Program-made: the position numbers and the translations under genes
From: Candidatus Bathyarchaeota archaeon
GTDB taxonomy: Archaea > Thermoproteota > Bathyarchaeia > Bathyarchaeales > DTEX01
Assembly (NCBI GenBank): GCA_963714275.1
Contig: CAVQNT010000003.1
Span: 160,001-224,000 of the forward strand
Length of the DNA: 64,000 nt
Direction of reading: 5' to 3'
Part shown: positions 1,007 through 54,024 of the stretch, one piece after another
How positions within the stretch are numbered: position 1 is the first letter of the stretch
Layout: the number at the start of each line of letters is the position of its first letter
The notes under the pieces: model-generated
The model's database searches: none
The model's input: the letters and a program-made list of their open reading frames with translations, nothing else
What the model was told of the DNA's origin: nothing

Positions 1007-1171
1007 TGCGCCCCAAAACAACAGAAATATTGCGCCGCAAATCAGACAGGTCTTCAACATCGACGGCTATTAATATGCAAACGGAAAATCCTATTGTCAC
1101 ACAAAACAGACAGCCTCCCGAAAACAGCAAATGATGTTCAAACAGCAAAAACTGTTGATGAACAAATCAGA
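1007..1171 (+). repeat. Three tandem copies of a 40-bp bipartite dispersed repeat (1007-1046, 1071-1110, 1132-1171)
   Basis: Each unit is two ~13-16 bp halves 24 bp apart, ending CAAA(A/T)CAGA; strong similarity to 41255-41458. Confidence 0.8.
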
Positions 1172-1238
1172 TAGTAGAAACTTGGGTTTTTATCGTATGG
1201 AAAATCCACAAAAAAATGTAATAGGTTTCTGAAGCTTT

Positions 1239-2672
1239 TTATAATGACGTGAAACTGGACACGTTGTCCATGACGGTGCTGATTCTGCTTAGGCTGTCAA
1301 AGACCACGTTAAGCCGATACGTGCTTTTCAGTGTGAGCTGAATCTGCCTCATTACGAAACGGGGAGACCAAAGAAAACTTTGGTAAAAATCACGCACCAT
1401 CTCCCTCATCTCGTTAAGAGACACAGCGTTGGGATAAACGTCTGAAACGCCGACTCCTCTCTCCCAATACTTGTCTTCGTCTATGAGACCCTTCTCCTTG
1501 AACTCCTGCCAAATATTGTCACCAGGAAAAGCGCCCAAAACGTTGATTTGGGGAATGTCGAGATTCAACCCTTTCACGAAATTGAGGGTCTTTTGAATGT
1601 CCGCCTTCGTTTCGTTAGGAGCGCCAATAATGAACGAGCCAACTATGAGGTCCATTCCCGCCTTCCTCGCCTTCTTCACGGCTTCCATGGACTGCTGCAG
1701 AGTCGTCCGCTTATTGTAATAGTCAAGAACCTTCTGGATACCGCTTTCAATCCCGAAATACATCATTCGGCAACCCGCCTTTACCATCCCCCGAAACATG
1801 TCATAAGAAGACTGGTCAACCCTTCCCTCGCATATCCATTCCACGTCGATTTTTTCCTTCCTTATCCTCCGGCAAAGCTCCACCACCCTTTTACGGTTCA
1901 AAGTGAAGTTGTCGTCAACAAACATTATTTGCTTGTAACCCTCGCTGGCTAAAAGGTGAAGCTCCTCCAAAACGTTTTCGACAGACCTTGCCCTCCAGAT
2001 GCTATGGGCGATGCTGGAGCAGCAACAGAAACGGCACTTGAACATGCACCCTCGGGAAGAAAGGAAACTGGTAAACTTCTTTGGCGCCACGTTAATCCCG
2101 ACGGTCGTGTTGTGGTACTCGTTGTCCAAAAGGCTCCGTTCGGGAAAAGGTAACGAATCAACGTCCTTTATCAATGGCCTGTCCGGGTTCGAAACAACAC
2201 GATTGTTGTGTCTAAAGGTGACCCCCCAAACATCTTTGAGATTCCTTTTTTCCTTAAGACGAGTCACAAGTTCAAGGCAGGTTTGCTCGCCCTCGCCCCT
2301 AACGACAACATTCACGAAAGGGTACTTCCTGAGAATCCTTTCAGCATTAAAGGTCGCATGATGGTTCCCGAAAACAACGACGATGTCAGGATTCGCCTTT
2401 TTGGCTTCCTCCGCGATTTTAGGCGCCGTCAAACTGGAACTAACAAGCACGGACAAGCCGAGGACATCAGGATCTTCTTTTTTGACCCAATCAACAACCC
2501 TCTTAACGGAGATTTTTTCAGCCGCATGATCTAACACGGACGCCTCTATTCCCCTGCTTCTCAGCGTCGAGGCTAAATATAAAATCCCAAGGGGAGGACA
2601 CGCAGCAGTCATGGTGTTCTCGCCCTCTAGAAGAGACCCGTTAGGGCCAGGATTTACGAAAGTAACTTTCAT
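1239..2672 (-). CDS. B12-binding domain radical SAM protein (class B methyltransferase-like)
   Basis: PPLGILYLA N-terminus, SRGCMFKCRFC CxxxCxxC motif, FVDDNF, GIESG. Confidence 0.9.
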   Translation of the reverse strand: MKVTFVNPGPNGSLLEGENTMTAACPPLGILYLASTLRSRGIEASVLDHAAEKISVKRVVDWVKKEDPDVLGLSVLVSSSLTAPKIAEEAKKANPDIVVVFGNHHATFNAERILRKYPFVNVVVRGEGEQTCLELVTRLKEKRNLKDVWGVTFRHNNRVVSNPDRPLIKDVDSLPFPERSLLDNEYHNTTVGINVAPKKFTSFLSSRGCMFKCRFCCCSSIAHSIWRARSVENVLEELHLLASEGYKQIMFVDDNFTLNRKRVVELCRRIRKEKIDVEWICEGRVDQSSYDMFRGMVKAGCRMMYFGIESGIQKVLDYYNKRTTLQQSMEAVKKARKAGMDLIVGSFIIGAPNETKADIQKTLNFVKGLNLDIPQINVLGAFPGDNIWQEFKEKGLIDEDKYWERGVGVSDVYPNAVSLNEMREMVRDFYQSFLWSPRFVMRQIQLTLKSTYRLNVVFDSLSRISTVMDNVSSFTSL

Positions 2673-2859
2673 GGCTGTAAGCTCTTAAGAGTTTTTTACG
2701 TATTCTCCTATTTTAGCTAGCTAACTTAGCTAGAGCACGTATAAAATCTTCTTTCAACATATGAGTATTTCATTTTTCGTCAGCAAGGTCCATAGATTGC
2801 AGACTTAAGGTTTTGTGCCATTCTAAAAAGCTTTCAAAAAAACATTTCTCCCATTTTTA

Positions 2860-2899
2860 TGTTAAGCAAAACTGAAAAAGGTTTGTTACACAAATCAGA
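2860..2899 (+). repeat. Single copy of the 40-bp bipartite repeat
   Basis: TGTTAAGCAAAAC-TGAAAAAGGTT-TGTTACACAAATCAGA. Confidence 0.75.
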
Positions 2900-3060
2900 T
2901 AGATTTCTAAATAAACGTGTTTTTTGTTTTAGGATTAGAACATCGACCCGAAACATACCAAAAAAGGGGATTTTATTTGAGTCAAGTCAAAATGGCTTAC
3001 AACAACAATGAAGCGCAATCCTATTCAAGTAAATTTCAATGTATGGTTCAAACATTACGT

Positions 3061-18031: not shown

Positions 18032-18122
18032 ATACTTACGCCACTCGATTTTTACACACACGAATATTTTTATTTATTTTATAATTCAGAAACAGCAAAG
18101 GTTTTATCTTTACTTTTTTTAA

Positions 18123-19037
18123 ATGTCATTCCGTCTTGGAGGAATGTCTTTGAAGATAATAGGATGCCCCGGTTCATTTGAATTGGCGGGCAAAATTAGT
18201 ATTTTAACAACTTGGCCGAGGTTTTTAATCGATACGAAAAGGTTTCCTGATGGAGAATTCTATTTTAGGTTCGAAGAAAATATTTCTGGGGAAGAACTGC
18301 TTGTTGTTCAGAGCTTGTTTCCGTCGCAAGATACTCATTTAGTTGAACTTTTTTTGATTCTTCAAACGGCAAGATACCTCAAAGCTAAATCAATCAATGT
18401 CTTCATTCCTTACTTGGCTTATAGTCGACAAGATGAACGATATCTGGACGGAGAATGCTTAAGCGCAGGTCTGATAGCTGAACTGCTGCAACACCTGGGG
18501 GCTGACTCCCTTTATACAATTGACGTGCACAACCAAAATGTTTTAAACATGTATAAAATTCCTGCTTATACCTTATCAGCGTCAGCGGAACTGGCAAAAT
18601 ACTTTGTTTCAAAAAACCTCAAGGATCCGTTTGTTGTTGCTCCTGACGATGAAGAGATGGCTTTGAAACGGGCTGAAACTGCTGCAAAAAGTATTGGCGC
18701 TGAATATGATTTTTTCGAAAAAAGCAGAGACCGTCACACCGGTGATATCATAACGCATTCAAAGAAGGTTAACGTAAAAGGTAGAGACGTAATAATAATC
18801 GACGACATCATAAGCACTGGTAAAACTTCGGCTAATGTAGCAAAAATACTTAAAAAGCAAGGAGCACGAAGAGTGTTCATCGGAGTCTCGCATGCGCTAC
18901 TTTTGGGGAACGCTTTGAAACTCTTAACTTCTTCAGGAGTAGATGAAATTGTTGGAACAGATAGCGTGGCCAATAGTTTTGCAAAGGTCTCCGTCGCACC
19001 AATATTAACTAAAGCTCTAAAAACATGTAATAAATAA
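18123..19037 (+). CDS. prs: Ribose-phosphate pyrophosphokinase
   Basis: RFPDGE, PYLAYSRQD and IIDDIISTGKT. Confidence 0.95.
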   Translation: MSFRLGGMSLKIIGCPGSFELAGKISILTTWPRFLIDTKRFPDGEFYFRFEENISGEELLVVQSLFPSQDTHLVELFLILQTARYLKAKSINVFIPYLAYSRQDERYLDGECLSAGLIAELLQHLGADSLYTIDVHNQNVLNMYKIPAYTLSASAELAKYFVSKNLKDPFVVAPDDEEMALKRAETAAKSIGAEYDFFEKSRDRHTGDIITHSKKVNVKGRDVIIIDDIISTGKTSANVAKILKKQGARRVFIGVSHALLLGNALKLLTSSGVDEIVGTDSVANSFAKVSVAPILTKALKTCNK

Positions 19038-19177
19038 AATTTTATATGTAAATATCTATAATCTTTTTTGTGAGATTAAGGATAGCTCACTAATTTTTAA
19101 CATTTTTTTAAAAAAATGTTAACTAAAGTTATATGGTTTGGTTGTGGAATAATATTTTCTTTTCAATTATACAATAT

Positions 19178-19453
19178 TTATATTTCTATTAACTTTTTTT
19201 GACCTATGCCAGTTAATACCCAAATATATGGTTTTTTACTGTTTCTTTTAATAATATTTTCGTTTTCCAATAAATGTAAATGATGCAGAATTGAGGAGTA
19301 GTGAATCCCAGTTTTTTCGTTAATTGCCTTTGCGGTACATTGGAGTATATCTAGGGTTGAGACTATTTTTGTTCTTGTCACAAGCCCCTTTTTTACATTC
19401 TTTGTTTTTATCAAAAAGGCTTTTGGATGATAATAATCTCTAATCATTTCCAT
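19178..19453 (-). CDS. Small winged-helix DNA-binding protein
   Basis: TAKAINEKTGIHYSSILHHLHLLENENII...PYIW. Confidence 0.7.
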   Translation of the reverse strand: MEMIRDYYHPKAFLIKTKNVKKGLVTRTKIVSTLDILQCTAKAINEKTGIHYSSILHHLHLLENENIIKRNSKKPYIWVLTGIGQKKLIEI

Positions 19454-19486
19454 TAGAATTATGTAGGGAAGTTGAATAAAAAATTT

Positions 19487-19798
19487 TTATTCTGTATGGA
19501 TTCTACAAAGAATGGTTGTGGACCATTTTTCTATCGTTCGCCCCATCGTCCTTTTGTAAGTATTTTGGGCGATCTCTTTTCTTTTATCTGCACAGTTTCG
19601 GCATCTTTCGTGTCTCATGTCAGATGGTCCATCACATTTTCCACAGTTGAGAAGTAACGTTTCCCCTAGCCCCTTCAAATCAGTCCAAGCATATTCTCTT
19701 TCGTCGAATTCGGGTTCAAAGTCTGGCCATAGATCATAAATATTGTTTTGTTTCATGGCTTCCTTTAAAGATGTAAAATAATGCTCAAATGAAGTCAT
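19487..19798 (-). CDS. Hypothetical protein with two CxxC pairs
   Basis: CGKC...CRNC; co-oriented in the GGGPS gene string. Confidence 0.6.
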   Translation of the reverse strand: MTSFEHYFTSLKEAMKQNNIYDLWPDFEPEFDEREYAWTDLKGLGETLLLNCGKCDGPSDMRHERCRNCADKRKEIAQNTYKRTMGRTIEKWSTTILCRIHTE

Positions 19799-39438: not shown

Positions 39439-41095
39439 TCACCCTTTACCTCTGACGATAATTCTTATCAAAAGGAGAACCATGAAAGAAGCCAAGATGA
39501 GAAAACCAATCCCTAACGCGCTCTCAGACGGCGAGGCATACCCCTTTACAATCCAATCCACCAGCAAAACGGGAACAGTTTTCAAGGCGCCTCCAGCTGC
39601 CTTAGCTGCTCCTGTCTCGCCGATGCATCGAGTAAAAACAAGAACAGCGCCTGAAAAGACCGAATACTTCGTTAAGGGTAAAGTTATTCTTTTAAAGATA
39701 GTGAAAGGCTTAGCCCCAAGTGTGCTGGCGACCTCTTCCATCTCTGGCGACACGCTTTCGATGGCTGCAGACATGGATAAAACGAAATAAGTATAGGTTA
39801 TTGTTATGTGCGAAAGGACGAGAACCCAAAACTCAGGCGCCTGAAGGCTTCCCCAAAAGAATTTTAGTGAAATGCCGAGAGCAATCGAAGGAACGATGAT
39901 AGGAATGTTAACAAGTGAATCCAGAACCGGAGTTAGGCGACCGAGCTTCTTACGAGCAATAATTATCGCCACAGGCAATCCAGCTGCAACGTTTGTGATT
40001 GTGGATATGAAACCAATAACGTAAGACAAGAGCATACTGCTCCAGAAGGCGTTCCACGGTTCAGCTCCGCCTAAAGCCTGCAGCCCAAAGTTCCGTTAGT
40101 AAAGCGTTAGTTAGGGGCAATGCGATGAAAAGTGAAGGGCAAATTACGAACACAAAAAACGCTGCAATTGCTACGAGATCCCTGCTTTTAACGGATGTAT
40201 TACTGCTTAATTTTCTTTCAAGATTTGGCCACGCCCGTCTAATTGGAAGCTTCAATCGTGGAGCAAGTAGCCTTATGGCGAGGAACACTGCGACCGAGCT
40301 CAGAATAAGAAGCGAGCTTACATAGACAAGGGCGCCCTTCATTTCGGTGTTGTAATATATGAACACGGGACCATTCTCGAATGATCCAGCCACCATTACG
40401 GTGGCTCCTGTTTCGGAAAGCGATCTGGCGAAGGCTAGAAGGAAAGATGCGATTAACGCTGGCTTCAACAGGGGCAAGGTTACGGTTCTCACCGACGTAA
40501 AGGGTGGGGCGCCAAGAGTTTTGGCTGCTACTTCGTAAACTTGCTTGTAGCCTAGTAGTTCGCCTACCATGACCCTTACGATCACGGGGTAAGAGAAGGC
40601 GAAGTGAAGCAGAAGTACAAGCACGAAGCCTGGTGGAACAAGCGTCTCAACTCCGAACAGGCTGGAGATTCCTCCTTTTTGGCTCCAGAACAGGCTTGCG
40701 GAGTATCCTAGGGCAGTTGTTGGAATAAGGAAAGGAACATCGGCTAAAGTATCTATCACGTTAATCAGTCTGGATTTGCTTCGAACGATGAACCATGCAA
40801 GCGGCAAAGCTGCGACAAGGTCTAAAACAGAAACAGCGAAAGCAGTTAAAAATGACCATGCGATGGCTGAGTTCGCTCTCGCAAGCAGCTCTGGCATCTC
40901 ATAAATCTGCGTTATGCTGCCGATGTTTTGGAGTATGCCGATTACTGGGGGGACAAGAATCAAGGCGAAAAAGAAGGCAATGGCGGAAATATAGACGAGA
41001 TGTTTCGCCCATGGTTTGGAGGAGAGAGCGTCAAGACTCTTAACAAACCTAGACATAGGTCCACGTTGCTTAGTTGCTTTTTGTTGGCTCTCCAT
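39439..41095 (-). CDS. Fused two-domain ABC permease (Fe3+/thiamine/anion type); frameshift ~40060-40110
   Basis: Two EAA-like loops (EVAAKTLGA and EEVASTLGA). Confidence 0.8.
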
Positions 41096-41254
41096 TTCTT
41101 TTGTAGAGAAATACGTAAGTGGATATATAGTTTATCTGTGCAACGGTTTATGGTAATTATATGCCTCATATAACTTGATAAAAATAATAACGAAAATGTC
41201 ACAATAAATTATTTTTTAACCTGAAACCGTTGAAAACACAAAAAAACAGCTATT

Positions 41255-41490
41255 TGTTATGCATAATTGAAAGTCGTATGTCACACACATCAGAACAATC
41301 TATTCTGGACCTTTGCCTTTCATATTCAATAACTTCATGTCCTATAGAACAGCCTTTTGCGCCCAAAACAACAGAATAGATGCGTTACAAAACAGAACAA
41401 GTCTAAGCCAATGCAGAATGTTGTTTAAACAGCAAAACCTGATGATGAACAAATCAGACCAGACTGAAACGCCTAAAATCAATTATTAAA
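41255..41490 (+). repeat. Three copies of the 40-bp bipartite repeat (41255-41294, 41358-41396, 41419-41458) plus a conserved tail
   Basis: Near-identical to the units at 1007-1171; tail CAGACCAGACTGAAACGC is shared with the inverted copy near 53970. Confidence 0.8.
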
Positions 41491-41559
41491 AGAAAAATCA
41501 GCACTTTGGAAAAGCAGCTTTGGCATGTCGAGTTGTAGCTCAGCTAGATTTCCTTAGTC

Positions 41560-42603
41560 TTAAGTAGTAAACGCCGCTTTCACGGCTTCCTTGTAAGCAT
41601 AGTAAGCCAGCTTAGGCTTAGCTTTTACGTCGAGGAGTCCCCAGCCACATTCCGATGGACACTCAGGCTGACCACACTGCCAACACGTCGGAGGGTCACG
41701 CCAACGGAAAAAGAAGTTACCCAAAAGGTAAGGGATCTCTGCGAACATCCCCAGCGCAACCTTCACAAATTCAGCCTGTTCAACCTCTGAATGCTCTTTT
41801 TTCCAAACGTTGTACCACGCCTTCTCGTAGCAGTTCCAACCGTTCCAGCCTTCCGGCGGAGAACCCTTAGGACTTTCCTTCACGCGCCCTATGGAGGAGT
41901 ACCCCCACTCGTGAATGACGACGGGAACATTGGTGATTCGGTGAATCTTTTCCAGAAGCGGAGGCCAACTCTCAGGACTGCCGGGTGCCCAAGAACCGAA
42001 ATACCCGTCTATCCCAGCGTAATCAAGGGGTTTCTCGCCCCTTGCATACAGGTTTTCGAAGAGCCATCTACCATCGGCACCTAGCCCCGCGGGATTGATG
42101 CTTGTCTCGGCTTCTGGGTTGCCTTCTTTGACGCCCAAACTTCCCTCTTTCAGGAAACGAACAGCCTGCTCAACGGTCATGGGTCCTCGGAAGATGCGTA
42201 TGTCCATCTCGTTTGAAACCTGCCACAACTGCACAAGCCCAGCGGTTTGTTCACCCATCTCTTTGCATCCTTCGCGGTAGGCTTCATAATACCTGTTCGA
42301 GTCATAGGTTCCCGCCCATTTAGGCAATTCAGGCTGCCAAACTGTTTTACCTAGTTTTTTATTGAACCGATAGGAACCTGTAAGCGGAGTGACCCCCATT
42401 ATTTTAAAGCCTTTCTTTCTTAACGTTTTCACGTGCTCTACCGTTTCCAGAAACCGGGGGTTAGACTCGCCATGCAACCGGTCTTTGAATGGATAAGTAA
42501 AGCCTATTCTGATCCATTCGATTCCCGCCTGTTTCATCAGAACATAATCGGGGTCTGAATAGGTGTATGCGCATATTCCCATAATGTGTTTTCCGTTCTT
42601 CAT
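41560..42603 (-). CDS. Clan GH-A TIM-barrel glycoside hydrolase
   Basis: WQVSNEMD acid/base, VVIHEWGYS nucleophile and WGLLD...KPKLAY. Confidence 0.75.
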   Translation of the reverse strand: MKNGKHIMGICAYTYSDPDYVLMKQAGIEWIRIGFTYPFKDRLHGESNPRFLETVEHVKTLRKKGFKIMGVTPLTGSYRFNKKLGKTVWQPELPKWAGTYDSNRYYEAYREGCKEMGEQTAGLVQLWQVSNEMDIRIFRGPMTVEQAVRFLKEGSLGVKEGNPEAETSINPAGLGADGRWLFENLYARGEKPLDYAGIDGYFGSWAPGSPESWPPLLEKIHRITNVPVVIHEWGYSSIGRVKESPKGSPPEGWNGWNCYEKAWYNVWKKEHSEVEQAEFVKVALGMFAEIPYLLGNFFFRWRDPPTCWQCGQPECPSECGWGLLDVKAKPKLAYYAYKEAVKAAFTT

Positions 42604-42677
42604 CTTGCATCTGTAATCTTCTTTAACTTTCGTTCATAAAAGATTTCCCGAGGATCGATAAATTAGATAAAATAGAT

Positions 42678-43769
42678 ATGCGTAGAAAAAGTAGTGATGT
42701 TGGAATGAATGCTCGCGAAAGAATCAAACTGGCTTTGAATCACCGTGAAGCTGACCGAATTCCGATTCACGACAGTCCCTGGGCAGCGACGGTTGACCGG
42801 TGGCGAAACGAAGGATTACCTTCAGGGATATCGACTGCTGACTACTTCGGTTACGAGATGGGAAGCGTTGGACCTGATACTTCGCCGATGTTTCCCGTTG
42901 AGGTTCTTTCTGAAGACGATGAATACATTGTCGAAAAGAACAGTTATGGCGGAGTTAGGAAAAACCACAGGGACTATTCAACCACGCCCATGATTATCGA
43001 CTACCCGTGCAAGAACAGGGAAGACTGGGAAAAAATCAAGCCCAAATTGAAGCCAAGCGATTACAGGGTTGATTGGGTATCAGGTTTGCAGTCTTTTCAT
43101 CGCGAACACAGTCGAGGACGCTTCATCACCTACAATGCGGTTGTTGGATACGACAAGATAATGCTCTACGTAGCATTACCTCGCCTTTTAAGGGCAGTCA
43201 TCCAAGAGCCAGAATGGGTCAAAGACATGTACTGGACGGACGCAAAGCTAGCCATAGATATGTGCGACCTAATGATGAAAGGAGGGTTCAAGTTTGACGG
43301 TGCCTTCCTCTACTGCGACTTGGGTTATAGAGGAGGACTCTTTTTTTCCCCCAAGTATTATGAGGAGCAGATGCATCCTGTGTTCAAGGAACTGTGCCGA
43401 TACTTCCATAGTCACGAGATGCCGGTGTTCCTTCATTGCTGTGGTAAAGTCAAGGACCTCATTCCGTTCTTTATCGAGGAGGGGATTGACTGTCTTCAAC
43501 CGCTGGAAGTTAAATCCGGCATGGACCTCATAGAGCTCAAAGAAAAATACGGAGACAAAATCTCCTACATGGGAGGCATCGACGTGAGACTCATGGCCCT
43601 CGACGACCCGAAACCTATAGAGAAAGAAATCAAAGAGAAGATTACAGCAGCAAAGGAAGACGGTGGCTACATCTACCACTCCGACCATTCTGTGCCTAAG
43701 GACGTCAGCTTTGAACAATACAAGAGAATAATTAAATTAGTCCACAAGTACGGAAAATACAAATCTTAA
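42678..43769 (+). CDS. Uroporphyrinogen decarboxylase / MtaA-CmuA family protein
   Basis: RERIKLALNHREADRIP, LHCCG, QPLEVKSGMD and GGYIYHSDHSVP. Confidence 0.85.
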   Translation: MRRKSSDVGMNARERIKLALNHREADRIPIHDSPWAATVDRWRNEGLPSGISTADYFGYEMGSVGPDTSPMFPVEVLSEDDEYIVEKNSYGGVRKNHRDYSTTPMIIDYPCKNREDWEKIKPKLKPSDYRVDWVSGLQSFHREHSRGRFITYNAVVGYDKIMLYVALPRLLRAVIQEPEWVKDMYWTDAKLAIDMCDLMMKGGFKFDGAFLYCDLGYRGGLFFSPKYYEEQMHPVFKELCRYFHSHEMPVFLHCCGKVKDLIPFFIEEGIDCLQPLEVKSGMDLIELKEKYGDKISYMGGIDVRLMALDDPKPIEKEIKEKITAAKEDGGYIYHSDHSVPKDVSFEQYKRIIKLVHKYGKYKS

Positions 43770-43855
43770 ACCTTCAGATAGAAAAACGAGTAATACCATC
43801 TGAGAAAAAGTAATATACTATTTTCAAATATATTTCCGCAAAAGGAGGACCTTAA

Positions 43856-45162
43856 TTGATAAAAATTACCTATCTTGGAGCGGGAAGCGGCTTTGCGCCG
43901 GTTCTGAGTAAAGACATTTTCCAGATTCCGGGGCTTGACAAAGGCGAACTGTGCTTAGTGGACATAGACCCGGAGAGGTTGAAGCTTTCTCAAAGAGCAA
44001 CCGAGATTGTCAACGAGAAGCTGAAGACAAAATGGAAGATTACAGCCTCAACTGACCGCGAAGAGGTCATGAGCGACTCCGACTTCATAATTAACACGAT
44101 CGAAGTCAACGGAGTCCATACAGTCAAGTACGACTACGAGATCCCATTAAAGTATGGAGTTGACCAATGCATCGGCGACACCGTTGGTCCAGGAGGCGTA
44201 ATGAAGGCCTTAAGGACCGTTCCGCCTTGGCTGGAGATACTTAAGGACGTCGAGAGACTTTGCCCAAACGCTTACGTGCTTAACTATACGAACCCGATGT
44301 CCATGATGATGCTTGCGACCTTTCGCACCTCAAAAATGAAGGCTGTGGGGCTATGCCATTCCGTCCAGGGAACCTCCGTTGATTTGTCAAAGTATCTGGG
44401 ACTGCCGTATGAGGAGTTAGAGTGGAAGTGCGCAGGAATCAACCACATGGCATGGTTTACCGAATTAAAATACAAAGGCGAAGACATGTATCCGAACCTA
44501 AAGAAGAAAGTGAAACATGATAAGGCTCTCTACGAAAGGGACCCAGTTAAGTTTGAGACTTCTGCTTCACCTCGGTTACTTCGTGACAGAGTCAAGTGGT
44601 CACATGTCCGAGTACTTGCCGTATTTCCGAAAAAGGTCGGATCTCATCGATAAGTATTGCCGCGAAGGCTACCTTGGCGGCAGAGGATTCTACGCCAAAA
44701 ACTGGCCAAAGTGGAGGCAGGATCTTGACGAGCGAAGGAAACGGATAATTGCGGGACAGGAGGAGCCGCAGTTGAATAAAAGCGTCGAGTACGCGTCCGA
44801 AATTATTGAGAGCATAGTGTTCAACAGGTTCAAGGTCATTTTCGGCAACGTGCTTAACACGGGCTTGATAACGAACCTTCCCCAGAACGAGGTTGTTGAA
44901 GTCGCCTGCTTGATCGACCGCAACGGCGTGAACCCCACGTACTTTGGCGAACTACCCCCACAGTTAGCCGCGCTCAACAAGGCGAACATGGCGGTTTACG
45001 ACTTGGCGATGAGAGCCTATAATGAACGGCAGCTACGAAATGGCGGAGCAGGCAATAATGCTTGACCCGTTGACAGCCGCGGTTTGCTCGCTTGAAGAAA
45101 TAAGAAACATGTTCGCAGAGCTCTACAAAGCAGAGAAGGACTACATACCCAAATTAGATTAA
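43856..45162 (+). CDS. melA: GH4 alpha-galactosidase (MelA-like); frameshifts ~44558 and ~45025
   Basis: GAGS, QCIGDTVGPGG, LNYTNPM, GLCHSVQ, GINHMAW and TESSGH. Confidence 0.85.
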
Positions 45163-45192
45163 GAATGTTGAAGTGAAAGCCACTATTTCCTT

Positions 45193-47525
45193 TTATATAT
45201 CAACATGGATTCTGCCGCCATTTGGATACAGCCGTGAATAGTTTTTTAGCAATTGGACAGTGACCGGTATTCCCTTGGGTCCTTCCACATCTATTTCTAT
45301 TTTTTTACCAACCTTTTTCCAGTCTACTTTGACCATACCTTGAACCGTAGGCATCTGCCCCTTGGCGTATTCGTAAATGAATTGTGGCTTAACAAGAATC
45401 ACCTCGAACCCAGGTTTCAAGGGTTTAATCCCCAAGACTGCGGTCAGAAAATCCACTGCTGGCCAAGACGACCACGCGTGACAGTCGCTTCTTCCGGGTT
45501 CGTCCCCCTCCTGCCAGGTGGTTAGGTGCCGCACCATCATCTGTCGGTAATCCTCAAGCTGATGTTTGCTGAATTCTTCGTAATGGCCAGTCTGTTCCAG
45601 TGCACGGGCAAGGTAGTAACCATATGGTTTCAGCATAAATCCGCTAACTGCGTCAGTGAAAAGTTTACTCGTGATTTGACTGATTTGGTCCTGCGTGGCG
45701 GCTCCAGCAAGGATCGGTTGCACCTGACTATGCTGGCTGACTGGTTTTTCTATCAGTTCAGGAGACTCCGCGAACAGGCGTTGTTTCTTGTCCCAGCATA
45801 AGTCGTGAACGGCAATCCTTACTCGGTTTGCCAATGGTCGCCAGCGGTCAGCGTCCTCTTTGAATCCAGCTTCCTCGTGCAAACGAATGGCGGCTGTTAA
45901 GGCAGCAAGGTATAGACTGGAAATGTAGGTTGATCCACCGTCCGCAACTGCCTTCGTCAGCATCGAGCCTCCTTCGCCATTGCCTCCGATCGGATTCCAA
46001 TACGGAAGCTTGCCCACAAGATTGTCCTCTCGCAGGTAGCTTCGGAACCACGTTAACACACCGTCAACCGCGAACAGATTGGACCGAACGAAGTCAGCGT
46101 CCTTTTTGCCTACCCACTCCCAATAGTCTTGAACCATCAGGACCCACGCCAAAGCAAAGTATGGCAGCCTGTGTGTACGTCTCGAGGGTACGCGGCAATG
46201 GATAAGGCCGTCAGGACGCATCGAGTTCCGGAACAGGAGGATTGAACGTCGCGGCAGTCTGGTTTCTCCAGCCAAGGCAAGGCTGCAGAGCGCCTCGTTT
46301 CGGGCGTCAAAAATGTAATGCAGCTGCTCGTAGTACGGGCAGTCTTCATAGGTTTCGTGGCTGCACAACTGAAGCGTGCGCCAGCTTATTTCCATCATTC
46401 TTTTCGAGTCTGGGTCTGAAGATTCGTAGTTGGCTTTTAGTTCCTGAGACCATGTTGTGAACCTGTAAGTTGCATCTTTGAGAACAAAGGGTTCATTTCC
46501 AGCGGAGACTTTTATGCGGATGAACCAGAAGGTGCGCCAATGGAAAGACTCGTAATAGAAAAATCCGCCGGGAAGAACGACCGTATCGTAGTAGCCAACG
46601 ATTACGCCCCTTTCAAGTTCATCCCGAACTGCCTTTTTCGTTGGGAAAGTACGGTTGCCCCTAGTAACATTTTCATTGACTTGTTCTCCATAGATTATTT
46701 CGACGGTACGTCCTTTTCCCCCTTCAAATTGAAGCTCAAGAAACCCCGTTGTCAACACGCCTGCATCAAGAATTATTTCGCCAGCCTCACCTGCCACTAG
46801 CCTCCACCCTTTTGGCGCGTCGCCGAACAGGTGTTCCGTCTCTTTCATGTCGCAAATGGTGCGAACGAAGCTTCTCGGTTCCTCAACCAACATCGGCACA
46901 TCGCGCGGCGTCAAGTGCCAAACGGCGTGTAATTCGCCCCACGTGGGATCCACGTCTGCGGCGACAACAAAACAGGCATCTTCCCAGTCGGAATCGTCAA
47001 AACCTGGGTACCACCAGCCGACGGGATATTTGGTTCCGTCAACCAGTTCCATATGGTCCAGAAAGTTCATTGCGTTGGAAAAATGTGTAACGTTCGGTTT
47101 GACGGCGCGGTCAACTTGTACCTTCCAGTTCTTCGGCGTGTCGATGCCTGTGGTCCTTGGTCCTTGCAGAAGAAACCCAGAGTAACCACTGTGGATTTCG
47201 TTGTTTGGGCTGTTGAGACCAAACCACACAACTTCAGCCGCGATAACATTACGACCTTTCTTTAACAGTTTACCAATGTCATAGTTTTCATAGTAGTAAC
47301 AATCCAGTTCGCCTTTCAGTGGTCCTCTACCCGCCCTTTGCCCGTTCACGAACAAACGGTAACGGCTATCCGCCGAGACACTAACAATGAAACTGTCAGG
47401 CTTTTCGTCAAGATGAAAGGTACGCCTGAAACGGCGAATGCACAGTCCAGGTCCACCGCGCTCCGACTCCAAGCAAACGCGGCTTGCCATCGTCCCTTAA
47501 CCTCGTAACCCTCGATGAGGCTCAA
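45193..47525 (-). CDS. GH78 alpha-L-rhamnosidase; N-terminal frameshift likely
   Basis: SADSRYRLFVNG, EDCPYYEQL and RSDCHAWS. Confidence 0.85.
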
Positions 47526-47689
47526 CAGTCGTCCTCCTCCATCATAACCCGATACGTCACAGTCATTATTTCAGCTTTCCCAAACAACCCCTTCCTGATT
47601 GATTGGGAAAAAAGAATAATAACCAAAGTCCGCATCTATCTAAACGCTGGGCAACAAGCCACTGCACAACAGCAAGCAGAATCGTCGAA

Positions 47690-47776
47690 GCCGGGTTACC
47701 CTAGCCTGGTATGGGGCAGGCCTGCTAAGTCTGTGACCGTTTGGTCGCGTGGGTTCGAATCCCACACCCGGCGCCA
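47690..47776 (+). tRNA. tRNA-Ser(GCT), intronless, CCA encoded
   Basis: Acceptor stem GCCGGGT/ACCCGGC with G73; anticodon arm CAGGC-CTGCTAA-GTCTG; long variable arm; GGTTCGAATCC T-loop. Confidence 0.95.
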
Positions 47777-47810
47777 TTTTACAAAAACAATTTTTTTTGT
47801 TGGATTGTTG

Positions 47811-48335
47811 CTAGGTTGGTACAATTTGTTGTTGGGCTAAATGAACGATTTTTTCTATGAATGCTGTTTTTGCGTCCGTGTAGCCGACGCGGTTTATACC
47901 GAACTTTTTTGAGAGCCTCCTTTTTAGTTTGTAGTATTTTTCAGCCACGTCCGAATGGTTTCTTAGGTAGTCTCGAAAAACCAGATGTCTGTTCCAGTGA
48001 CCACTTTGGAATTTCATGAGGTGCAGGTGGTATCCTACACTGTGGGGCGCTTTTCCTAGGCAGTAAAACCATTCTGAGTTGTCGGGTTCAGGCGTAACAT
48101 CAGTATAGCCGATTTTCTGTAATGGAAAAAGGCATTCATCGGCGTTGGTCTTATTATGGACTCCAACCATTATGTCTATGATCGGCTTCGCCCCCAAACC
48201 GGGCACTGCGGTGCTGCCTACGTGTTCGATGGCCAAGATTCTGTCTCCGACTGCCTCTAGAATTTGTTGTTTCTCTTTTTCATACAGAATTGGCCAATCG
48301 GGATCGTAGTCTACGATTATTACAGGACCCGGCAT
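47811..48335 (-). CDS. GrpB family (UPF0157) nucleotidyltransferase-fold protein
   Basis: IEHVGSTAVPGLGAKPIIDI and FRDYLR. Confidence 0.9.
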   Translation of the reverse strand: MPGPVIIVDYDPDWPILYEKEKQQILEAVGDRILAIEHVGSTAVPGLGAKPIIDIMVGVHNKTNADECLFPLQKIGYTDVTPEPDNSEWFYCLGKAPHSVGYHLHLMKFQSGHWNRHLVFRDYLRNHSDVAEKYYKLKRRLSKKFGINRVGYTDAKTAFIEKIVHLAQQQIVPT

Positions 48336-48452
48336 GGTAAGCCCAATTTATTCGGTCTCGTTTTCGGTATATAAACATGCATATTCGAAACAGGCAATGG
48401 CATGTTAGAATTAAATGCGTCTAAGGTTCTTCTATTATGCGTGGTGTTAGCT

Positions 48453-49886
48453 ATGTCAGCCGAAAAAGAGTCTTCCAGCTCATGGATTGAGGAAAACAGG
48501 ACAAGAATAATCAAAATCAGCGACGAAATTTGGGAGCTTGCTGAGCTCGGGCTGATCGAGTTTAAGTCTTCGAAGATTCTTGCAGACGAGCTTGAAAGAA
48601 ACGGCTTCAAGGTTGAACGTGGAGTCGCGGGGATGCCTACAGCTTTCGTTGCATCGTGGGGCAGTTCCAAACCCGTCATAAGCATATTGGGCGAATTTGA
48701 CGCTTTACCTGGACTTTCACAAAAGAAGGCTCCCTCAAAAGAACCATTACATCTTGGAAAACCTGGACACGGTTGCGGACACAACATTCATGGCACAAGC
48801 GGCATGGCAGCGGCTGTAGCCATCAAAAACGCAATGCAGAAACACCGAATTGGGGGCACGATAAAGTTTTTTGGTTGCCCAGCTGAGGAAAACTTCAACG
48901 GTAAAGTCTTCATGGTCAGAGACGGATGCTTTAGCGGCGTTGACGCCGTGTTAAGCCATCATCCAGGCGACATGAACTGTGCTACCTTGAAGAGCTGCTT
49001 GTCCCTCGACAACGTTAAGTTCAGTTTTTTTGGCAAGTCCGCTCACGCTGGAGGCTCGCCTCATCAGGGCAGAAGCGCTTTAGACGCTGTTGAGCTGATG
49101 AACGTTGGGGTCAACTATCTGAGGGAACATGTGATTCAGGATGCTAGAATTCACTATGTTATTGAGAAAGGCGGCGAACAGCCTAACATTGTTCCAGACT
49201 ATGCGCGAAGCTGGTATTACGTGAGGGCGCCTGAAAGAAACCAGGTTGAATACCTGTATAACTGGGTTCTTGATATTGCTGAAGGTGCTGCCAAAATGAC
49301 CAGAACGGAAATGAAATATGAGTCCATGGGCGGACTTTACAACTTGATTCCTAACAAGACCATATGTGAAAAGATCACAAGCAATATGCGGGAAATCGGA
49401 GTCCCCAAATATGATGAAGAAGATTTAGAGTTCGCACAGAAAATTTCGGAATCGATCCCGCCTGAAATGAAGTATGAAGAAATGAAAGAGTCTAAACGAC
49501 CAAATTGGGAAAGTCTTCTTGACAAGTTGTTGGACGACGAGGTTCCTGATCCTTGGGGAGAAGGCTTGGTCAGCCACGGAAGCACAGACGTTGCGGACGT
49601 AAGTTGGCAGATACCTGCCGTGGAGTTCAGCACAGCAACATGGGTTCTCGGCACACCAGGACACTCGTGGCAGAACGTTGCTCAAAGCGGCGTCGGAATT
49701 GGACACAAATCCCTAATCTTCGCAGCGAGGGTTATGGCTGCAACAAGCATCGACCTTTTGACTGACACAGAGCTTCTGAAAAGAGCGAATAAAGAACACA
49801 AACAAAGACTTGTAGGTAAAGAGTATAAGAGCCCTTTACCCCTTGGGATTCAACCGCTCTTGGACATATGGAACAAATCAGTATAG
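48453..49886 (+). CDS. M20 amidohydrolase (AbgB-like)
   Basis: GEFDALPG, GHGCGHN, PAEE and GSTDVADVSW. Confidence 0.9.
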   Translation: MSAEKESSSSWIEENRTRIIKISDEIWELAELGLIEFKSSKILADELERNGFKVERGVAGMPTAFVASWGSSKPVISILGEFDALPGLSQKKAPSKEPLHLGKPGHGCGHNIHGTSGMAAAVAIKNAMQKHRIGGTIKFFGCPAEENFNGKVFMVRDGCFSGVDAVLSHHPGDMNCATLKSCLSLDNVKFSFFGKSAHAGGSPHQGRSALDAVELMNVGVNYLREHVIQDARIHYVIEKGGEQPNIVPDYARSWYYVRAPERNQVEYLYNWVLDIAEGAAKMTRTEMKYESMGGLYNLIPNKTICEKITSNMREIGVPKYDEEDLEFAQKISESIPPEMKYEEMKESKRPNWESLLDKLLDDEVPDPWGEGLVSHGSTDVADVSWQIPAVEFSTATWVLGTPGHSWQNVAQSGVGIGHKSLIFAARVMAATSIDLLTDTELLKRANKEHKQRLVGKEYKSPLPLGIQPLLDIWNKSV

Positions 49887-50228
49887 CGGTATCAAAGAAA
49901 AAAAATATATTATATGAGGAAAAGTTTTCACAACTTGTCTTGTGATCCAGCTTACGTGCTAAGGATTATGACCTTGTCTTTCTTATTTGATACAAAAAAG
50001 ACCAGAGCAATGTCGAGTATAACCAAAACCATGATTATGAAGAGTACCTCTAAAAAAATAGGTCGTGAAGAAGGTAAACAGCTAGTCCACTAACCTGCTT
50101 AAGGAATTCTACATGTTAAAACGGTGCTGTCAAATTCATAAATCCCTTATGAACAACCTATATAGAGCCTTAACAAATATCAGAAACGAATGCAACTGTC
50201 TCAATCTATCTAAATACAGCCTTTTTGT

Positions 50229-50426
50229 CTATTTGTGCAGCGAAACAAAGCGTCTAGTGGACCTGTCATAAGATTTTTCCACTTGAGACGGGAAAAAGCA
50301 AGCTGGCAATTCACCATGTGACCTGTGAGTTCTTATGCATTCGCAGCACTTGCCTTTTAGGTCGCAGGAATATGTACAGTTACAGTCTTCAAGGTTAATC
50401 TCAACATTTGGACAAGCTTCTCTCAA
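50229..50426 (-). CDS. Small Cys-rich protein (DUF6485-like)
   Basis: CNCTYSCDLKGKCCECI...PACFF...YDRS. Confidence 0.7.
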   Translation of the reverse strand: MREACPNVEINLEDCNCTYSCDLKGKCCECIRTHRSHGELPACFFPSQVEKSYDRSTRRFVSLHK

Positions 50427-50510
50427 AACCTAGCTCACCTTTTCACATGCACCATTATAAATAAAGATAAAATCTTTCCCTATAAAAGTGAAACCATCGA
50501 GCGAGAAAGT

Positions 50511-51475
50511 TTAGGCGCTTCTTACGGTAATGCCTGTCTTTTTGTACATCAGATACTTTTCAAATTTCTGTCTTGTCGGGCTACCTCGAGTCTCAGGCTT
50601 CGTTGCCTTCAACGCGCCAGCCAAGTTCGCTCGTTCCAAACATTCCTCGTCGTTCAAGCCCCGCGATTTCGAAGCCACGAACATTCCCAGAAAAGCATCT
50701 CCGCAACCAACGGTATTCACAACTTTCAAGCCGAGCTCTTCTAAGTTGACACCTGGCACCGTGACCATCCACTCTGAAGTCATTAGTGAACAGCCCCTTT
50801 CCCCAAGCTTCACAATAAGTCTCAACCGATCGTTAAATGATATTAGTTTCTTCCACGCTTTTGTGGGTTCTTTTTCTCCAGTCAGGTTCTTTACCTCAAC
50901 TTGGTTGACCACAAGGTAGTCAAGGTTCTCGAGAACCTCACCCAGCTTTTCCATACCGAGTACGCTTCTGACACCTGCGTCCCAAACAACAAATTTTGCG
51001 TTTTTCTTTGCCAAAGTAGCTGCTGCTTTAATAGTTTCAAGAGGCGGATCAATCAAAGCGACGATGGATGATTCCTTGATTAAACCATAAATCTCGTTAA
51101 CCTGTAAATCCTTCGGCATAAGTTTGAGGTTCGCTCCGAAAAGGGTGTTAATGACGTTTCTTCCGTTCTTGTCGATTAGTATGTAGGCTTGCCCTGATTC
51201 CGCGTCCTCAATGACCTTTATTCCAGAAACTACGACACCTTCATCCTTCAGTATCTTCATTTGTTGGTCTGCAAAGGAGTCTCTTCCCAAGCAACCGATA
51301 AGAGCCACCTGGTCTGGACCCAAGATTCTGGCTGAGGCGACTGCCACGTTCGCAGCTTTCCTCCGGGAACACGCGATATTTTTTCAACAGGAACCTCTTC
51401 GCCGATTTCGGGAAACCTTTCTACAAACAGGTTTATGTCCCAGTTAATTGCGCCTACGACGCATATTTTGACCAA
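50511..51475 (-). CDS. Ribokinase-like PfkB kinase; frameshift near 51355
   Basis: VVGAINWD, PGGK and NTVGCGDAF. Confidence 0.8.
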
Positions 51476-51513
51476 AAATTCCGCCTTCCACTTATTTATT
51501 GTTCTGGAATTGT

Positions 51514-52571
51514 TCACATCCAAGGATCCACTATGACCTTTATGGCATCCACGTTTCGGTTCTCAAGCGCGTTAATTGCTTCCTCTATTTTTTCAAGCGG
51601 AAACTTGTGGGTAATGAACTTTTTCACGTCGACCTTACCAGACGCCACGAGGCTTAAGGCTTCTAGGTATTGGCTTCTGTTAGAGGCGTTTGCCCCATGC
51701 ACGTGCAACTCGTTGTAATGAATCAAATTCGCGTCAATGTTGGCATAAGAGTCTTCTTTCGGAACTCCAGCAAAAAGCTCACATCCGCGTCAACCGCAGC
51801 CATCTCGAGAGCTTCCCTTTGAATTTCCTTTGAAGAAGCCGCACATATTACGACGTCTACACCTAACCCGTCCGTTAGTTCCTTGACTTTGTCAACAAGA
51901 CTACAAGTGCTGGCATCAACGTAGGTGTCCACGGGTAAACCTATTTTTTGTGCAAGAACAAGCCGCGGAGAAGAACGGTTAATCAGAATCACCTTAGCGC
52001 CTTTCTGTTTAGCGTACTCTGTGTGAAGCATGCCGATTATGCCAGCGCCTATTACGACAGCTGTGAAACCTTGAGGACGGAGTTTGAAGGGGTGCCACCC
52101 GTTAATCACGCACGAAAGGGGTTCGACGACGCTGGCTTCCTCAAAAGATAACGATTTAGGTATCTTGATAACGTTTCCCTGCTTTACAGCGGGTTTCGGC
52201 ATGAGGAGAAACTGCGCGTACCCTCCGTTGAACTGGTAGCCTATAGCTTTGTACTTTCTTCGGCAACGGTTTTCTTCGCCTTTTTTGCACGCGTCGCATC
52301 TGCCGCATCCGACAACTGTTTCTGGGATAACTTTGTCGCCAACAGAGTAACCTTCGACGCCTTCGCTTATTTCTTCAATTATGCCTGAAATTTCGTGCCC
52401 CGTGATTTGAACGTCGATTTTCTTTTGTCCACGGAAAATCCGTAAGTCAGTGCCGCAGACAGCGCAGGCTTTCACTTTGATTAGGATTTCGCCTTGTCCG
52501 CATTTGGGTTTATCAACCTCTGACACTACGAATTGTCCGGGTTTAGTTAGAATTGCTGCTTTCATCTTCAT
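51514..52571 (-). CDS. Zn-dependent polyol/alcohol dehydrogenase; frameshift near 51775
   Basis: CGTD, GHE, structural Zn cysteines and GAGIIG. Confidence 0.85.
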
Positions 52572-52735
52572 TTGTTAGCCACAATGTTACTTTAGGTTTA
52601 AGCAGAGAAAAAGGTTTTCGAGTGTTGGTTTTTAGCAGTTACAACGGAATCAAAAAGTTCATTGTTCAAACACTTTTTTGTACCTAAAAGATAATATATC
52701 TAGGAAATAATGAACATTTTAAGAGTGGTGCTAGC

Positions 52736-53935
52736 ATGGTTACTGAGGTCATAATGCCGAAGATGGGGCAGACGATGGAAAAGGGGAAGATCATAAGGTG
52801 GCTTAAAAAAGAAGGCGAAGAGGTCCAAAAAGAAGAGCCACTGCTTGAGATTGAAACTGACAAGACGACCATTGAGGTTGAGTCCAGAGGCACAGGCATC
52901 CTAAAAAAGATTCTAGTCCAAGAAGGAGAAGAAGCCCCCATATCTGCCGTAATCGGCTATATTGCCAAAGAAGACGAAATTCTCCCCGTAGAAATAAGTC
53001 AGAAAACAGAATTGTTAGCTGAAAAAATCCTCAGCTGAAAACGCTGTGAAACCGTTAAAAATTGTTACAAATGTCGAAAACATTGAAAGAATTAAAGCTT
53101 CGCCGTTAGCTGAAAAGCTCGCAGATGAATTAGGCGTCGATGTAAGCCAAGTTAAAGGCACAGGACCAGGAGGAAGAATCACTAGGGAAGACGTTCTCGC
53201 ATTTGCATCTAAGAAGCCATCACTAGTTGTTGAGGAAACAGTTCCAGCGTTTCAGGCAGTCCCCATGACGAGCATGCGGAAAGCCATCGCTGCGATGATG
53301 GTTCAAAGCAAAACCAGCGTCCCACATTTCTATGTCAGCGCACAGGTCGACATGACGGAGGTAGTTAAATTGCGGGAGAAGATACTTCCTGCTTACGAGA
53401 CTGAGTTTGGAGTCCGATTGTCCTTTACTCACATACTGGTCAAAGCTGTTGCTACAGCGCTTAAGGAGTTTCCTCAGTTGAACTCGACTTTTGAGTATGA
53501 AGCCATCAGACAGTGGAAAGACATCAACGTCGGAGTCGCTGTCAGCTTGGACGACGGACTGATCGTTCCGGTTCTCAGAAAAGCCAACGAGTTAAGCCTT
53601 AAGGAAATCGCTGTGAGGATGACTGAGACTCATGGTAAAGGCGAGGGACCGGAAACTCCGCGAGGAAGAGTTTTCGGGTGGGACTTTCACGATTTCTAAC
53701 ATGGGCGCTTTTGGCGTTGACTCCTTTATTGCCATCATCAACGTTCCCGAGGCAGCTATTCTTGCATCAGGCGCCATAAATGACAGAGTGGCTGTCGTAA
53801 ACAGCGAATTTGTCTTGAGAAAGATGATGAATGTTACGTTGTCAGACTGATCACCGTGTCGTCGACGGAGTCTACGCTGCAAAGTTCCTCCAGAAAGTCA
53901 AGAACCTACTGGAAACGCCCCAGAATTTAGTCTAA
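52736..53935 (+). CDS. Dihydrolipoamide acyltransferase (E2); 3 frameshifts
   Basis: Lipoyl motif [19 protein letters not shown]...[16 protein letters not shown] and DHRVVDG in the final frame. Confidence 0.85.
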
Positions 53936-53956
53936 CTAAAATATTTACTTACAGCA

Positions 53957-54024
53957 ATAATCGTTTTATTGCGTTTTAGTCTGGTCTGTTTTGTGTAACA
54001 TCCGATTTTCAGTTTTGTGTAACA
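53957..54024 (-). repeat. Inverted copy of the 40-bp bipartite repeat (53985-54024) with tail
   Basis: Minus strand reads TGTTACACAAAAC-TGAAAATCGGA-TGTTACACAAAACAGA-CCAGACTAAAACGC. Confidence 0.8.

Follow-up and report, generated by a model that had tools for sequence, protein, structure and literature searches.

A 64,000-nucleotide stretch of a Candidatus Bathyarchaeota archaeon genome (assembly GCA_963714275.1, contig CAVQNT010000003.1, positions 160,001 to 224,000 of the forward strand; henceforth the window) carries four loci at which short bipartite repeats lie next to genes for a B12-binding radical SAM protein, an OPT-like protein, a GH-A-like protein and the E2 component of a 2-oxoacid dehydrogenase. 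A preliminary description of this DNA had taken these repeats for likely recombination sites of a cassette-type gene-acquisition system. Here we report that they are units of an ordered, modular and previously undescribed intergenic family, which marks inverted, moved or cut gene order and is better read as a recombination-prone repeat.

The genome holding the window (G000; 2.64 Mb in 10 contigs, C1-C10, of 42-44% GC, 91% complete, with an archaeal 16S rRNA gene) belongs to a genus of which seven genomes, G000-G006, were compared, including G001 (98% complete), G002 (89%) and G004 (95%). G010 (99%) represents another genus and G038 another family of the same order; G013 is 90% complete. G000 and G002 are 84-93% identical. 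Units were searched for with an nhmmer profile built from the copies in the G000 genome, with a genome-wide cut-off of E < 0.01, and the counts so obtained are lower bounds, as the profile detects units of one type (type A, below) incompletely and passed over one or more degenerate arrays. The open reading frame (ORF) calls are crude (2985 ORFs in G000); their coverage of ~78% of the DNA, together with an E2 gene split over frames, means that the assembly may carry indel errors, so that ORF-based counts are approximate. The relatives are metagenome-assembled genomes (MAGs) with many contig ends at array repeats, several G002 contigs starting or ending inside arrays, and the arrays are thus a practical cause of MAG contig breaks.

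Unit architecture and the arrays of the window

The profile recovers 105 units at 64 loci of G000 (33 single, 21 double and 10 triple), 61 of which lie outside ORFs, with arrays on both strands. Each unit spans ~61 bp, in which a pair of TTTG-N5-CAAA mini-palindromes, spaced at 24 bp, precedes CAGAC: the first half-site reads TTTG-N5-CAAAAC and is separated by an A-rich spacer from the second, TG-N5-CAAA(A/T)CAGAC, behind which stands a linker such as AGGTCTAAG. The 24-bp period given in the preliminary description holds in 75 of the 83 units that could be parsed. Four unit types are told apart by the N5 core, namely A (CGCCC/CGCCA), B1 (TCATG/TCACA, with the spacer ACGGAAAA), B2 (TTACA, with the spacer AATTGAAAA) and C (TTGTT/ATGAA or TTGAA), and the two half-sites of one unit have related cores. 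The half-sites are weak palindromes, in which TG...CA is fixed and the inner pairs are complementary in fractions of 0.73 and 0.43 of the second half-sites, and the mini-palindromes are of only 4-5 bp. Multi-unit arrays mostly follow the order A-B1-B2-C with a period of 61-64 bp and with units missing, while a few are permuted, e.g. C-A-B. The last unit terminates in CAGACCAGAC, after which comes a ~45-nt tail of one of two classes. The four ordered unit types and the conserved tail, together with a fifth array at the edge of the window, are features that the preliminary description did not contain.

All eight units listed there, at four loci, were recovered at the same coordinates: the profile gives exactly eight window matches with E <= 1.3e-3, the next best having E = 0.55. 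Allowing at most one mismatch, the pattern TGNNNNNCAAAWCAGA matches the window 12 times, as against 4.19 +/- 2.09 times in 100 shuffles, none of which reached 12, and ten of these matches fall inside the four loci. A repeat search of the window likewise ranked the family first (repeats D1, D11, I1 and I2). D1 comprises four 42-nt copies and D11 joins 1012-1046 with 41362-41396, whereas in the inverted pairs I1 and I2 the segments 41434-41487 and 2860-2899 are matched with 53956-54024; I1 reaches 54 nt by virtue of the conserved tail behind the last unit. In this search the units within arrays are all direct and inverted matches occur solely between separate loci.

The first array, on the plus strand, begins with a type A unit at 1002..1053 (half-sites TTTGCGCCCCAAAAC / TTGCGCCGCAAATC, then CAGACAGGTCT; E 2.8e-7), continues with a type B1 unit at 1066..1114 (..GCAAACGGAAAATCC..TGTCACACAAAACAGAC; E 1.5e-8) and closes with a type C unit at 1131..1174 (TGATGTTCAAAC / TGATGAACAAATCAGA; E 2.2e-7), in which the half-sites are 23 bp apart. 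A stretch of spacer and tail (1175..1238) leads from it to the stop codon of the radical SAM gene (1239..2672, minus strand), which was identified by Pfam and found by synteny to be relocated relative to G001, G003 and G005. On the other side of this gene stands a lone plus-strand B2 unit at 2858..2903 (TGTTAAGCAAAAC / TGTTACACAAATCAGA; E 4.5e-7). The array at 41.3 kb, also on the plus strand, is composed of a B2-like unit (41252..41300; E 2e-5), which lies in the left breakpoint zone of an inversion, a type A unit (41353..41398; E 1.3e-3) and a terminal type C unit (41416..41465; E 2.7e-9) that ends in CAGACCAGAC and runs into a class-1 tail (CCAGACTGAAACGCCTAAAATCAATTATT; 41459..41490, within repeat I1). 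The right breakpoint of the inversion coincides with a lone B2 unit on the minus strand (53978..54027; E 2.8e-11), whose class-1 tail (53950..53984, minus strand, again within I1) points toward the end of a frameshifted E2 gene. The fifth array, with B1 and C units on the minus strand (C3:223996-224105), enters the window with its first bases, 63996..64000, and otherwise runs off it.

In the window, the CAGA end of every locus faces the stop codon of a convergent gene, as had been noted. The distance is 68, 162 and 102 bp at the first three loci, and it is ~48 bp at the fourth on condition that the frameshifted E2 gene is taken to continue to ~53937, the intact ORF ending at 53699. This regularity does not extend to the genome, where the tail-side gene is convergent at 28 of the 64 loci and the four orientation classes number 19, 17, 17 and 11. 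Of the four neighbours, which had been called accessory, three, namely the OPT-like, GH-A-like (347 aa, 41560-42603) and E2 genes, have orthologues in congeners. The E2 gene itself (52688-53937) is spread over at least three frames, with a lipoyl domain at 52688-53038, further pieces at 53019-53699 and 53623-53850 and a short C-terminal piece, and is either a pseudogene or affected by assembly indels.

Distribution, unit turnover and gene order

An exact form of the motif has 80 matches in G000, compared with 0+1 for the reversed control, 198 in G002 and 149 in G004, whereas G001 (2), G003 (1), G005 (1) and G006 (2) are at the control level and most other relatives have 0-7. The scan of the genome and its relatives that the preliminary description had called for thus places the family in three of the seven congeners. 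Across ~185,000 species genomes the B-type motif was found in 41 stretches, 36 of them in three Bathyarchaeia MAG records and the remaining five being single matches in unrelated bacteria. A search of the IMG/VR viral collection gave one match, inside a coding region and taken as chance, and a viral origin was rejected on this ground. G013 has about nine B2-type units. G010 has a sister family of the same plan, in which the palindromes are perfect, TTTGTCAG-TGA-CTGACAAA and then TTTGTC-A-GACAAA (8+3+8 and 6+1+6); two more types there follow the identical rule, and the linker ACAGGTCT / ACAAGGGTCT is kept between G000 and G010. Four of the six motif matches in G038 are identical (TGTTAGACAAATCAGA) and may represent a further sister family. 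Among side observations on the distribution, contig C1 of G000 (162 kb) is without a unit where ~4 would be expected at the genome-wide density; the contig may be exceptionally conserved, belong to another replicon or result from a binning problem. The array-free G001 has a repeated promoter-like motif of its own (..TTCCACAGAGCCTAT(A/G)TAA..) at two sites (L021, C48:47.8k; L032, C24:4.3k), which correspond to one G002 array, and TATA-palindrome modules resembling this motif occur inside arrays of G002 and G004.

Most arrays are at the same loci in G000 and G002, yet their unit content differs. This is exemplified by the window, where at the orthologous G002 site the type A unit at 1002..1053 is 95% conserved as against 86% for the surrounding alignment, while the orthologue of the B1 unit at 1066..1114 is strongly diverged, the position of the type C unit at 1131..1174 carries TGTTGAAC, and that of the B2 unit at 2858..2903 has a single half-site only, with a 20-nt indel. 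The second half-site of type C differs between the two genomes as a whole: of the 80 G000 matches, 13 carry TGATGAAC and 10 carry TGTTGAAC, as against 1 and 41, orthologous loci included, of the 100 listed G002 matches. Two G002 arrays 12 kb apart have an identical 52-nt C unit in common. Entire arrays may also be present or absent at otherwise colinear sites. Directly after a stop codon, G002 and G004 have an A/C-rich stretch of ~300 bp that includes B and A units where the spacers of G001 and G003 measure merely 60 bp and 29 bp, and at another site a 365-bp spacer of G000 with two units and a tail corresponds to 103 bp in G001. Judged by these comparisons of sequence, the copies are shown to evolve in concert, exchanging sequence between loci, and the family is shown to have expanded in one subclade of the genus, entering intergenic spacers.

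The clearest change of gene order concerns a ~12.6-kb segment of the window (41300..53985), which is inverted in G000 relative to G001, G002 and G004, with both breakpoints inside the arrays at 41.3 and 54.0 kb. These three genomes have the E2 side (51.5-53.9 kb) joined to the ABC-permease side in inverted form (41.1 to 38.5 kb), and the GDSL side (54.8 to 54.0 kb) is next to the side at 41.4-45.0 kb in G002; the G002 counterparts of the junctions are arrays too, and one G004 junction is masked with N. The 41.3-kb array of G000 is recombinant: its head flank is that of one array, its tail and flank are those of the other, and at the 54.0-kb unit the combination is the opposite one. Most simply, two B2-type units in inverted orientation would have crossed over reciprocally. 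The alternative arrangement is also encountered in contigs of four metagenome runs, in the form of opposite-strand joints that fall at unit boundaries (41246/54027, 41362-41364/53978-53985 and 41417/53984), and a 597-nt metagenome contig with two differences spans the G000 arrangement at 41022-41620. As the metagenome contigs are 90-99% alike and perhaps from sister species, they do not demonstrate polymorphism within one population.

The radical SAM gene has moved, and the preliminary description was right in that direct copies of the unit bracket it. In G005, G001 and G003 it lies between two other genes near the 23S rRNA gene. These two former neighbours are adjacent in G000 (C4:49.4-51.0k); the interval between them is free of units, a short way past them stands an A-B2-C array, and the G000 23S gene is on a separate contig with an array in front of it. 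The radical SAM gene is now placed between an UxuA-like and the OPT-like gene, with direct units on both sides, a position common to G000, G002 and G004, whereas the UxuA-like and OPT-like genes are neighbours, 95-127 bp apart, in G001 and G005. Gene content also changes at arrays: a two-gene block with an array is present in G002 and G004 and missing from G000, the G000 site being array-free, and comparison with outgroups makes this a deletion in G000 and not an insertion. Elsewhere, an indel of an SDR gene adjoins an array head. Exchanges of flanks can be seen as well, e.g. in the G002 array L098, where the tail flank found at C2:519.8k in G000 meets the head flank found there at C7:93.8k, both of these G000 places carrying arrays.

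As separate observations on the rRNA and tRNA surroundings, the 23S (L036 6015-9083, C2:815015-818083) and 16S (L001, C6:491752-493254) genes are on different G000 contigs, so that the rRNA genes appear unlinked in this genome; the 23S region is 88-94% identical to that of congeners, the protein genes of which are ~72% identical. Behind a tRNA-like gene (L035 11466-11543, C2:876.5k), G001, G002 and G004 have 3.6-5 kb that are absent from G000 and may be an integrated element lost from it.

The preliminary description had proposed a link between the repeats and breaks of synteny, and such a link is found. In a manual reading of seven G000 stretches against G001 (four 20-kb pieces chosen for array density and three pieces of the window), 12 of the 14 array-bearing junctions are discontinuous versus 8 of the 75 others. 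In an automated test of 35 eight-kb loci of two sister MAGs, picked for a B-type unit and compared with G000, the corresponding figures are 19/26 and 40/161 (odds ratio 8.2, p = 3e-6); the compared genomes are related and do not constitute independent samples. When 17 G002 arrays were examined by hand against G000, three proved colinear with an array in both genomes, two colinear with different content, three had their flanks at two different array-bearing places of G000, seven matched G000 on one side (one of them at a contig end) and two on neither. The variable side shows no significant preference for head or tail among the G002 loci (6 versus 2).

Mechanistic interpretation and rival explanations

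On balance, we think it probable that the family is a modular interspersed repeat, lineage-specific to Bathyarchaeia, which constitutes an archaeal counterpart of the BOX and REP (repetitive extragenic palindromic) elements of bacteria and acts as portable recombination homology. Under this proposal, the full element would be an ordered set of ~61-bp units (A, B1, B2, C) closed by the ~45-nt tail, from which individual copies would have lost, swapped or duplicated units. Having spread in one subclade, the family would now provide dispersed homology, its copies converting one another and occasionally crossing over to generate inversions, flank exchanges and deletions, with arrays left at the borders of moved or lost genes. 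The crossovers would be effected by host homologous recombination on the 45-60 bp of shared units, and the mini-palindromes might be recognised by a putative dimeric protein, DNA-binding or mobilising, through which the element spread in the past. The cassette-like behaviour would then be a by-product of portable homology and not the work of a dedicated integron-like system.

The nearest likeness is to the BOX elements of Streptococcus pneumoniae and S. suis, which, in passages of one account, are intergenic boxA-boxB(n)-boxC modules with no demonstrated mobilising enzyme (PMC3049150). As far as those passages go, the two families share distinct modules in a fixed order and variable number, an intergenic location, multiple copies, lineage specificity with an apparent burst of spread, and a position beside all kinds of genes, whereas terminal modules resembling insertion sequence (IS) inverted repeats and a predicted stem-loop belong to BOX only (PMC3049150). 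The archaeal units, for their part, are direct, lack terminal inverted repeats or a significant fold, and come in four types with an internal 24-bp duplication. The resemblance is one of architecture, offered as a works-like comparison, and no terminal complementarity of the boxA/boxC kind is seen in the arrays. REP elements and the bacterial interspersed mosaic elements (BIMEs, or REPINs) built from them are imperfect palindromes of 20-40 nt in alternating orientation, linked to the gene for a Y1 transposase (the REP-associated tyrosine transposase, RAYT), and are known join-points of rearrangements. Like them, the present family contains palindromes, is extragenic, has ~100-200 copies in composite arrays and is patchy between related species; unlike them, its palindromes are of 9-13 bp and its units are all direct. 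Correia elements of Neisseria and other MITEs (miniature inverted-repeat transposable elements) are defined, in the passages of the account that treat them, by terminal inverted repeats and target-site duplications (PMC3049150). Non-coding, AT-rich, intergenic and multi-copy nature, possible promoter-like modules and disturbed gene order are points that those passages allow to be shared (PMC3049150). In the arrays, no terminal inverted repeats were found, and no target-site duplication is evident at the one, diverged, insertion site.

On the features observed, the family would belong to none of BOX, REP/BIME, MITE, attC, CRISPR and C/D box RNA, and full-text searches of the literature, supplements excluded, returned no description of such a modular, ordered, non-palindromic archaeal repeat. 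The arrays provide a concrete, sequence-defined marker of gene-order change, including a fully resolved inversion, between close species of Bathyarchaeia, which are abundant and mostly uncultured sediment archaea whose genome reshaping is little understood. If no enzyme is involved, they offer a clear case in nature of concerted evolution and rearrangement driven, in an archaeon, by short dispersed repeats; a dedicated enzyme, if real, would imply a new recombination system.

Several points weigh against the proposal of portable homology. Neither a mechanism of transposition nor target-site duplications nor a sharp boundary of the element came to light, and the proposal accounts neither for the fixed order of units nor for the shorter distance of the tail from its neighbouring gene (median 125 nt, as against 355 nt for the head; p = 0.009). 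Across genera the plan of the units is kept although the palindrome cores differ (the B2 units of G013, the G010 family), a pattern suggestive of a function under selection, or of a binding protein that co-evolves, more than of junk. Stretches of 45-60 bp that are 78-90% identical are poor substrates for homologous recombination, which leaves room for a site-specific enzyme. Finally, against control junctions of at least 150 bp the enrichment of breaks is weaker (19/26 versus 17/45; odds ratio 4.5, p = 0.006), so that part of the signal may reflect operon boundaries; the excess of breaks at arrays is real, and derives in part from arrays lying in long spacers between transcription units. The covarying cores, the fixed order and the tails nearer to genes thus leave room for a candidate binding protein, such that a function for the host keeps a minor but appreciable likelihood, and a site-specific recombinase a slight one.

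A function for the host, which we hold to be unlikely though the best of the alternatives, would make the arrays platforms for a DNA-binding protein (a regulator, a chromatin protein or a chromosome-organising factor) or modular, G-poor non-coding RNA genes; they would, with the same low likelihood, be kept by selection, the rearrangements being incidental. The architecture kept across three genera despite different core sequences fits this idea, as do the use of the same core in both half-sites of a unit, the linker conserved between G000 and G010 and the strong conservation of unit A between G000 and G002. TATA-palindrome modules embedded in some G002 and G004 arrays, just upstream of further units, point in the same direction. 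However, the element was not found in four of the seven congeners, one of which is 98% complete, units turn over rapidly at orthologous loci, and no rule of orientation or position relative to genes emerges. On the side of RNA, the only Rfam match in the window at the gathering level is a tRNA-Ser; sensitive Rfam scans of two arrays yielded sub-threshold snoRNA, miRNA and CRISPR-DR noise (E = 0.03-2.4), the fold of the 1000-1240 array is no better than that of shuffles (z = +0.54 on the plus and -1.37 on the minus strand), and the few variants in a type C stem are uncompensated. A terminator was rejected on two counts, namely that a T5 run lies within 120 nt downstream at 29 of the 64 loci, with no excess over the 39% of 5000 random intergenic windows, and that the tail-side gene is convergent at only 28 of these loci. 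C/D box small RNAs have C (RUGAUGA) and D (CUGA) boxes at their ends, C'/D' boxes inside and 12-nt guides. In the arrays UGAUGA is confined to the TGATGAAC variant of type C (13/80 in G000, 1/100 of the listed G002 matches) and the Rfam C/D matches, at E = 0.34-2.4, are far below gathering; this candidate, too, was rejected. CRISPR arrays consist of identical repeats with unique spacers between them; here, successive units differ in type, types recur across loci and there are no unique spacers, which rejects a CRISPR array.

It is doubtful that the arrays are dispersed attachment (att)-like sites at which a site-specific recombinase excises circles of gene plus array and re-inserts them at other arrays. 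Such a system, equally doubtful, would work like a scattered integron or an IS26-like translocatable unit. With the same small probability, the arrays might be the working sites of an archaeal gene-shuffling system, served by a putative dimeric recombinase acting on TTTG-N5-CAAA. The cores would in that improbable case co-evolve with the enzyme, differing between genera and being homogenised within species. Genes between or beside arrays would be inverted, excised as circles and re-inserted in a dispersed, integron-like economy without a cassette array, which we regard as quite unlikely. The relocated radical SAM gene between direct units, the two-gene block with its array, the SDR gene indel at an array head and the flank exchanges are what such an enzyme might produce, and the mini-palindromes resemble dimer-binding sites with cores that covary between half-sites and between genera. 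Set against this, there is no recombinase among the 16 window ORFs scanned, as the preliminary description had stated, and the site vacated by the radical SAM gene has no unit. The G000 site without the two-gene block is likewise array-free, the outgroups pointing to deletion and not insertion; orientation to genes is random and many insertions are of arrays only. The exchanges are crossovers inside arrays, explicable by ordinary homologous recombination, which leaves a dedicated att-site function as a candidate only. Of the cassette idea, the link to changes of gene order and content stands, while no enzyme is linked to the arrays and the donor and 'empty' sites are free of units.

The attC sites of integrons, including the Vibrio cholerae repeats (VCRs), are single imperfect inverted repeats (R''-L''...L'-R') folded from one strand and are arranged in one orientation in a tandem cassette array beside intI and attI. 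The arrays are like them in that a repeated site lies on the 3' side of genes and borders gene-sized insertions, with the radical SAM gene resembling a site-flanked cassette. They differ in being direct repeats, without a significant fold, at 64 dispersed loci in random orientation and with no linked integrase, which upholds the earlier remark that they are not palindromic in the manner of attC.

No recombinase or transposase family was seen to track the element. Integrase (tyrosine recombinase) genes number 18 in G000, 13 in G001, 4 in G002 and 1 in G004, the last despite its 149 motif matches; these counts do not follow the element, and a tyrosine recombinase partner was rejected. Only 2 of the 18 G000 integrase genes are within ~1.2 kb of an array, where ~1 is expected. 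Y1_Tnp (PF01797) has no match in the element-bearing G000, G002, G004, G010 and G013, its matches being confined to G005 and G033, both without the element, and a RAYT/IS200 partner was rejected accordingly. No protein family is convincingly enriched beside arrays among the 2985 ORFs (best p = 0.004, uncorrected). Paralogs of the HTH_45 family (18 matches in G000) were rejected as a candidate binder, for array-free genomes have them too. As an aside on this family, one winged-helix gene (C10:2564-2920) has ~8 near-identical copies (C2:255.6k, 300.0k, 334.1k, C5:85.4k, C6:363.1k, C7:140.7k and others), which are 72-92% identical, several with in-frame stops, and are situated on a ~400-bp repeat beside a Cas1 element; this repeat is probably part of another mobile element family.

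Least probable of all is that the arrays are transposon-end remnants or a MITE, i.e. multiple transposase-binding sites of a Tn7/Mu-like or other end, either solo or mobilised in trans by an IS: a ~24-bp site repeated directly in one end is reminiscent of transposon ends with multiple sites, the number of copies depends strongly on lineage and two tail-outward configurations were noted (C5:120670-120881, and C6:22827/23928 around a 244-aa gene), but these are the only two noted among 64 arrays, no recurrent neighbouring gene family or Y1 transposase accompanies them, and neither terminal inverted repeats nor terminal complementarity nor sharp termini were found, similarity fading gradually in the tails. 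The clean array-only insertion of G002 and G004 relative to G001 and G003 shows no evident target duplication, but its spacer is very diverged. No known IS or MITE was found whose ends match the units. A link to the solo Cas1 genes, in the manner of casposons, was also rejected: G000 has seven Cas1 matches, two full length (C7:144376-145197 and C4:100381-101202) and five fragments, and the conserved 3' module that they share, which recurs at other places, is the 3' end of cas1 and unrelated to the units.

Other features of the window

Two further features of the window are distinct from the arrays. Contig depth in the metagenomes rises ~5-10-fold at 47339-48005, over the tRNA-Ser gene (47690-47776), a conserved gene on which contigs from other organisms are expected to pile up. 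An Orc1/Cdc6 gene at 23694-24953 (NF001625, 513 bits) lies within a stretch of 29-36% GC (18000-26000) that also holds AT-rich inverted repeats (I3, 23225-23543), and this low-GC stretch is probably a replication origin.

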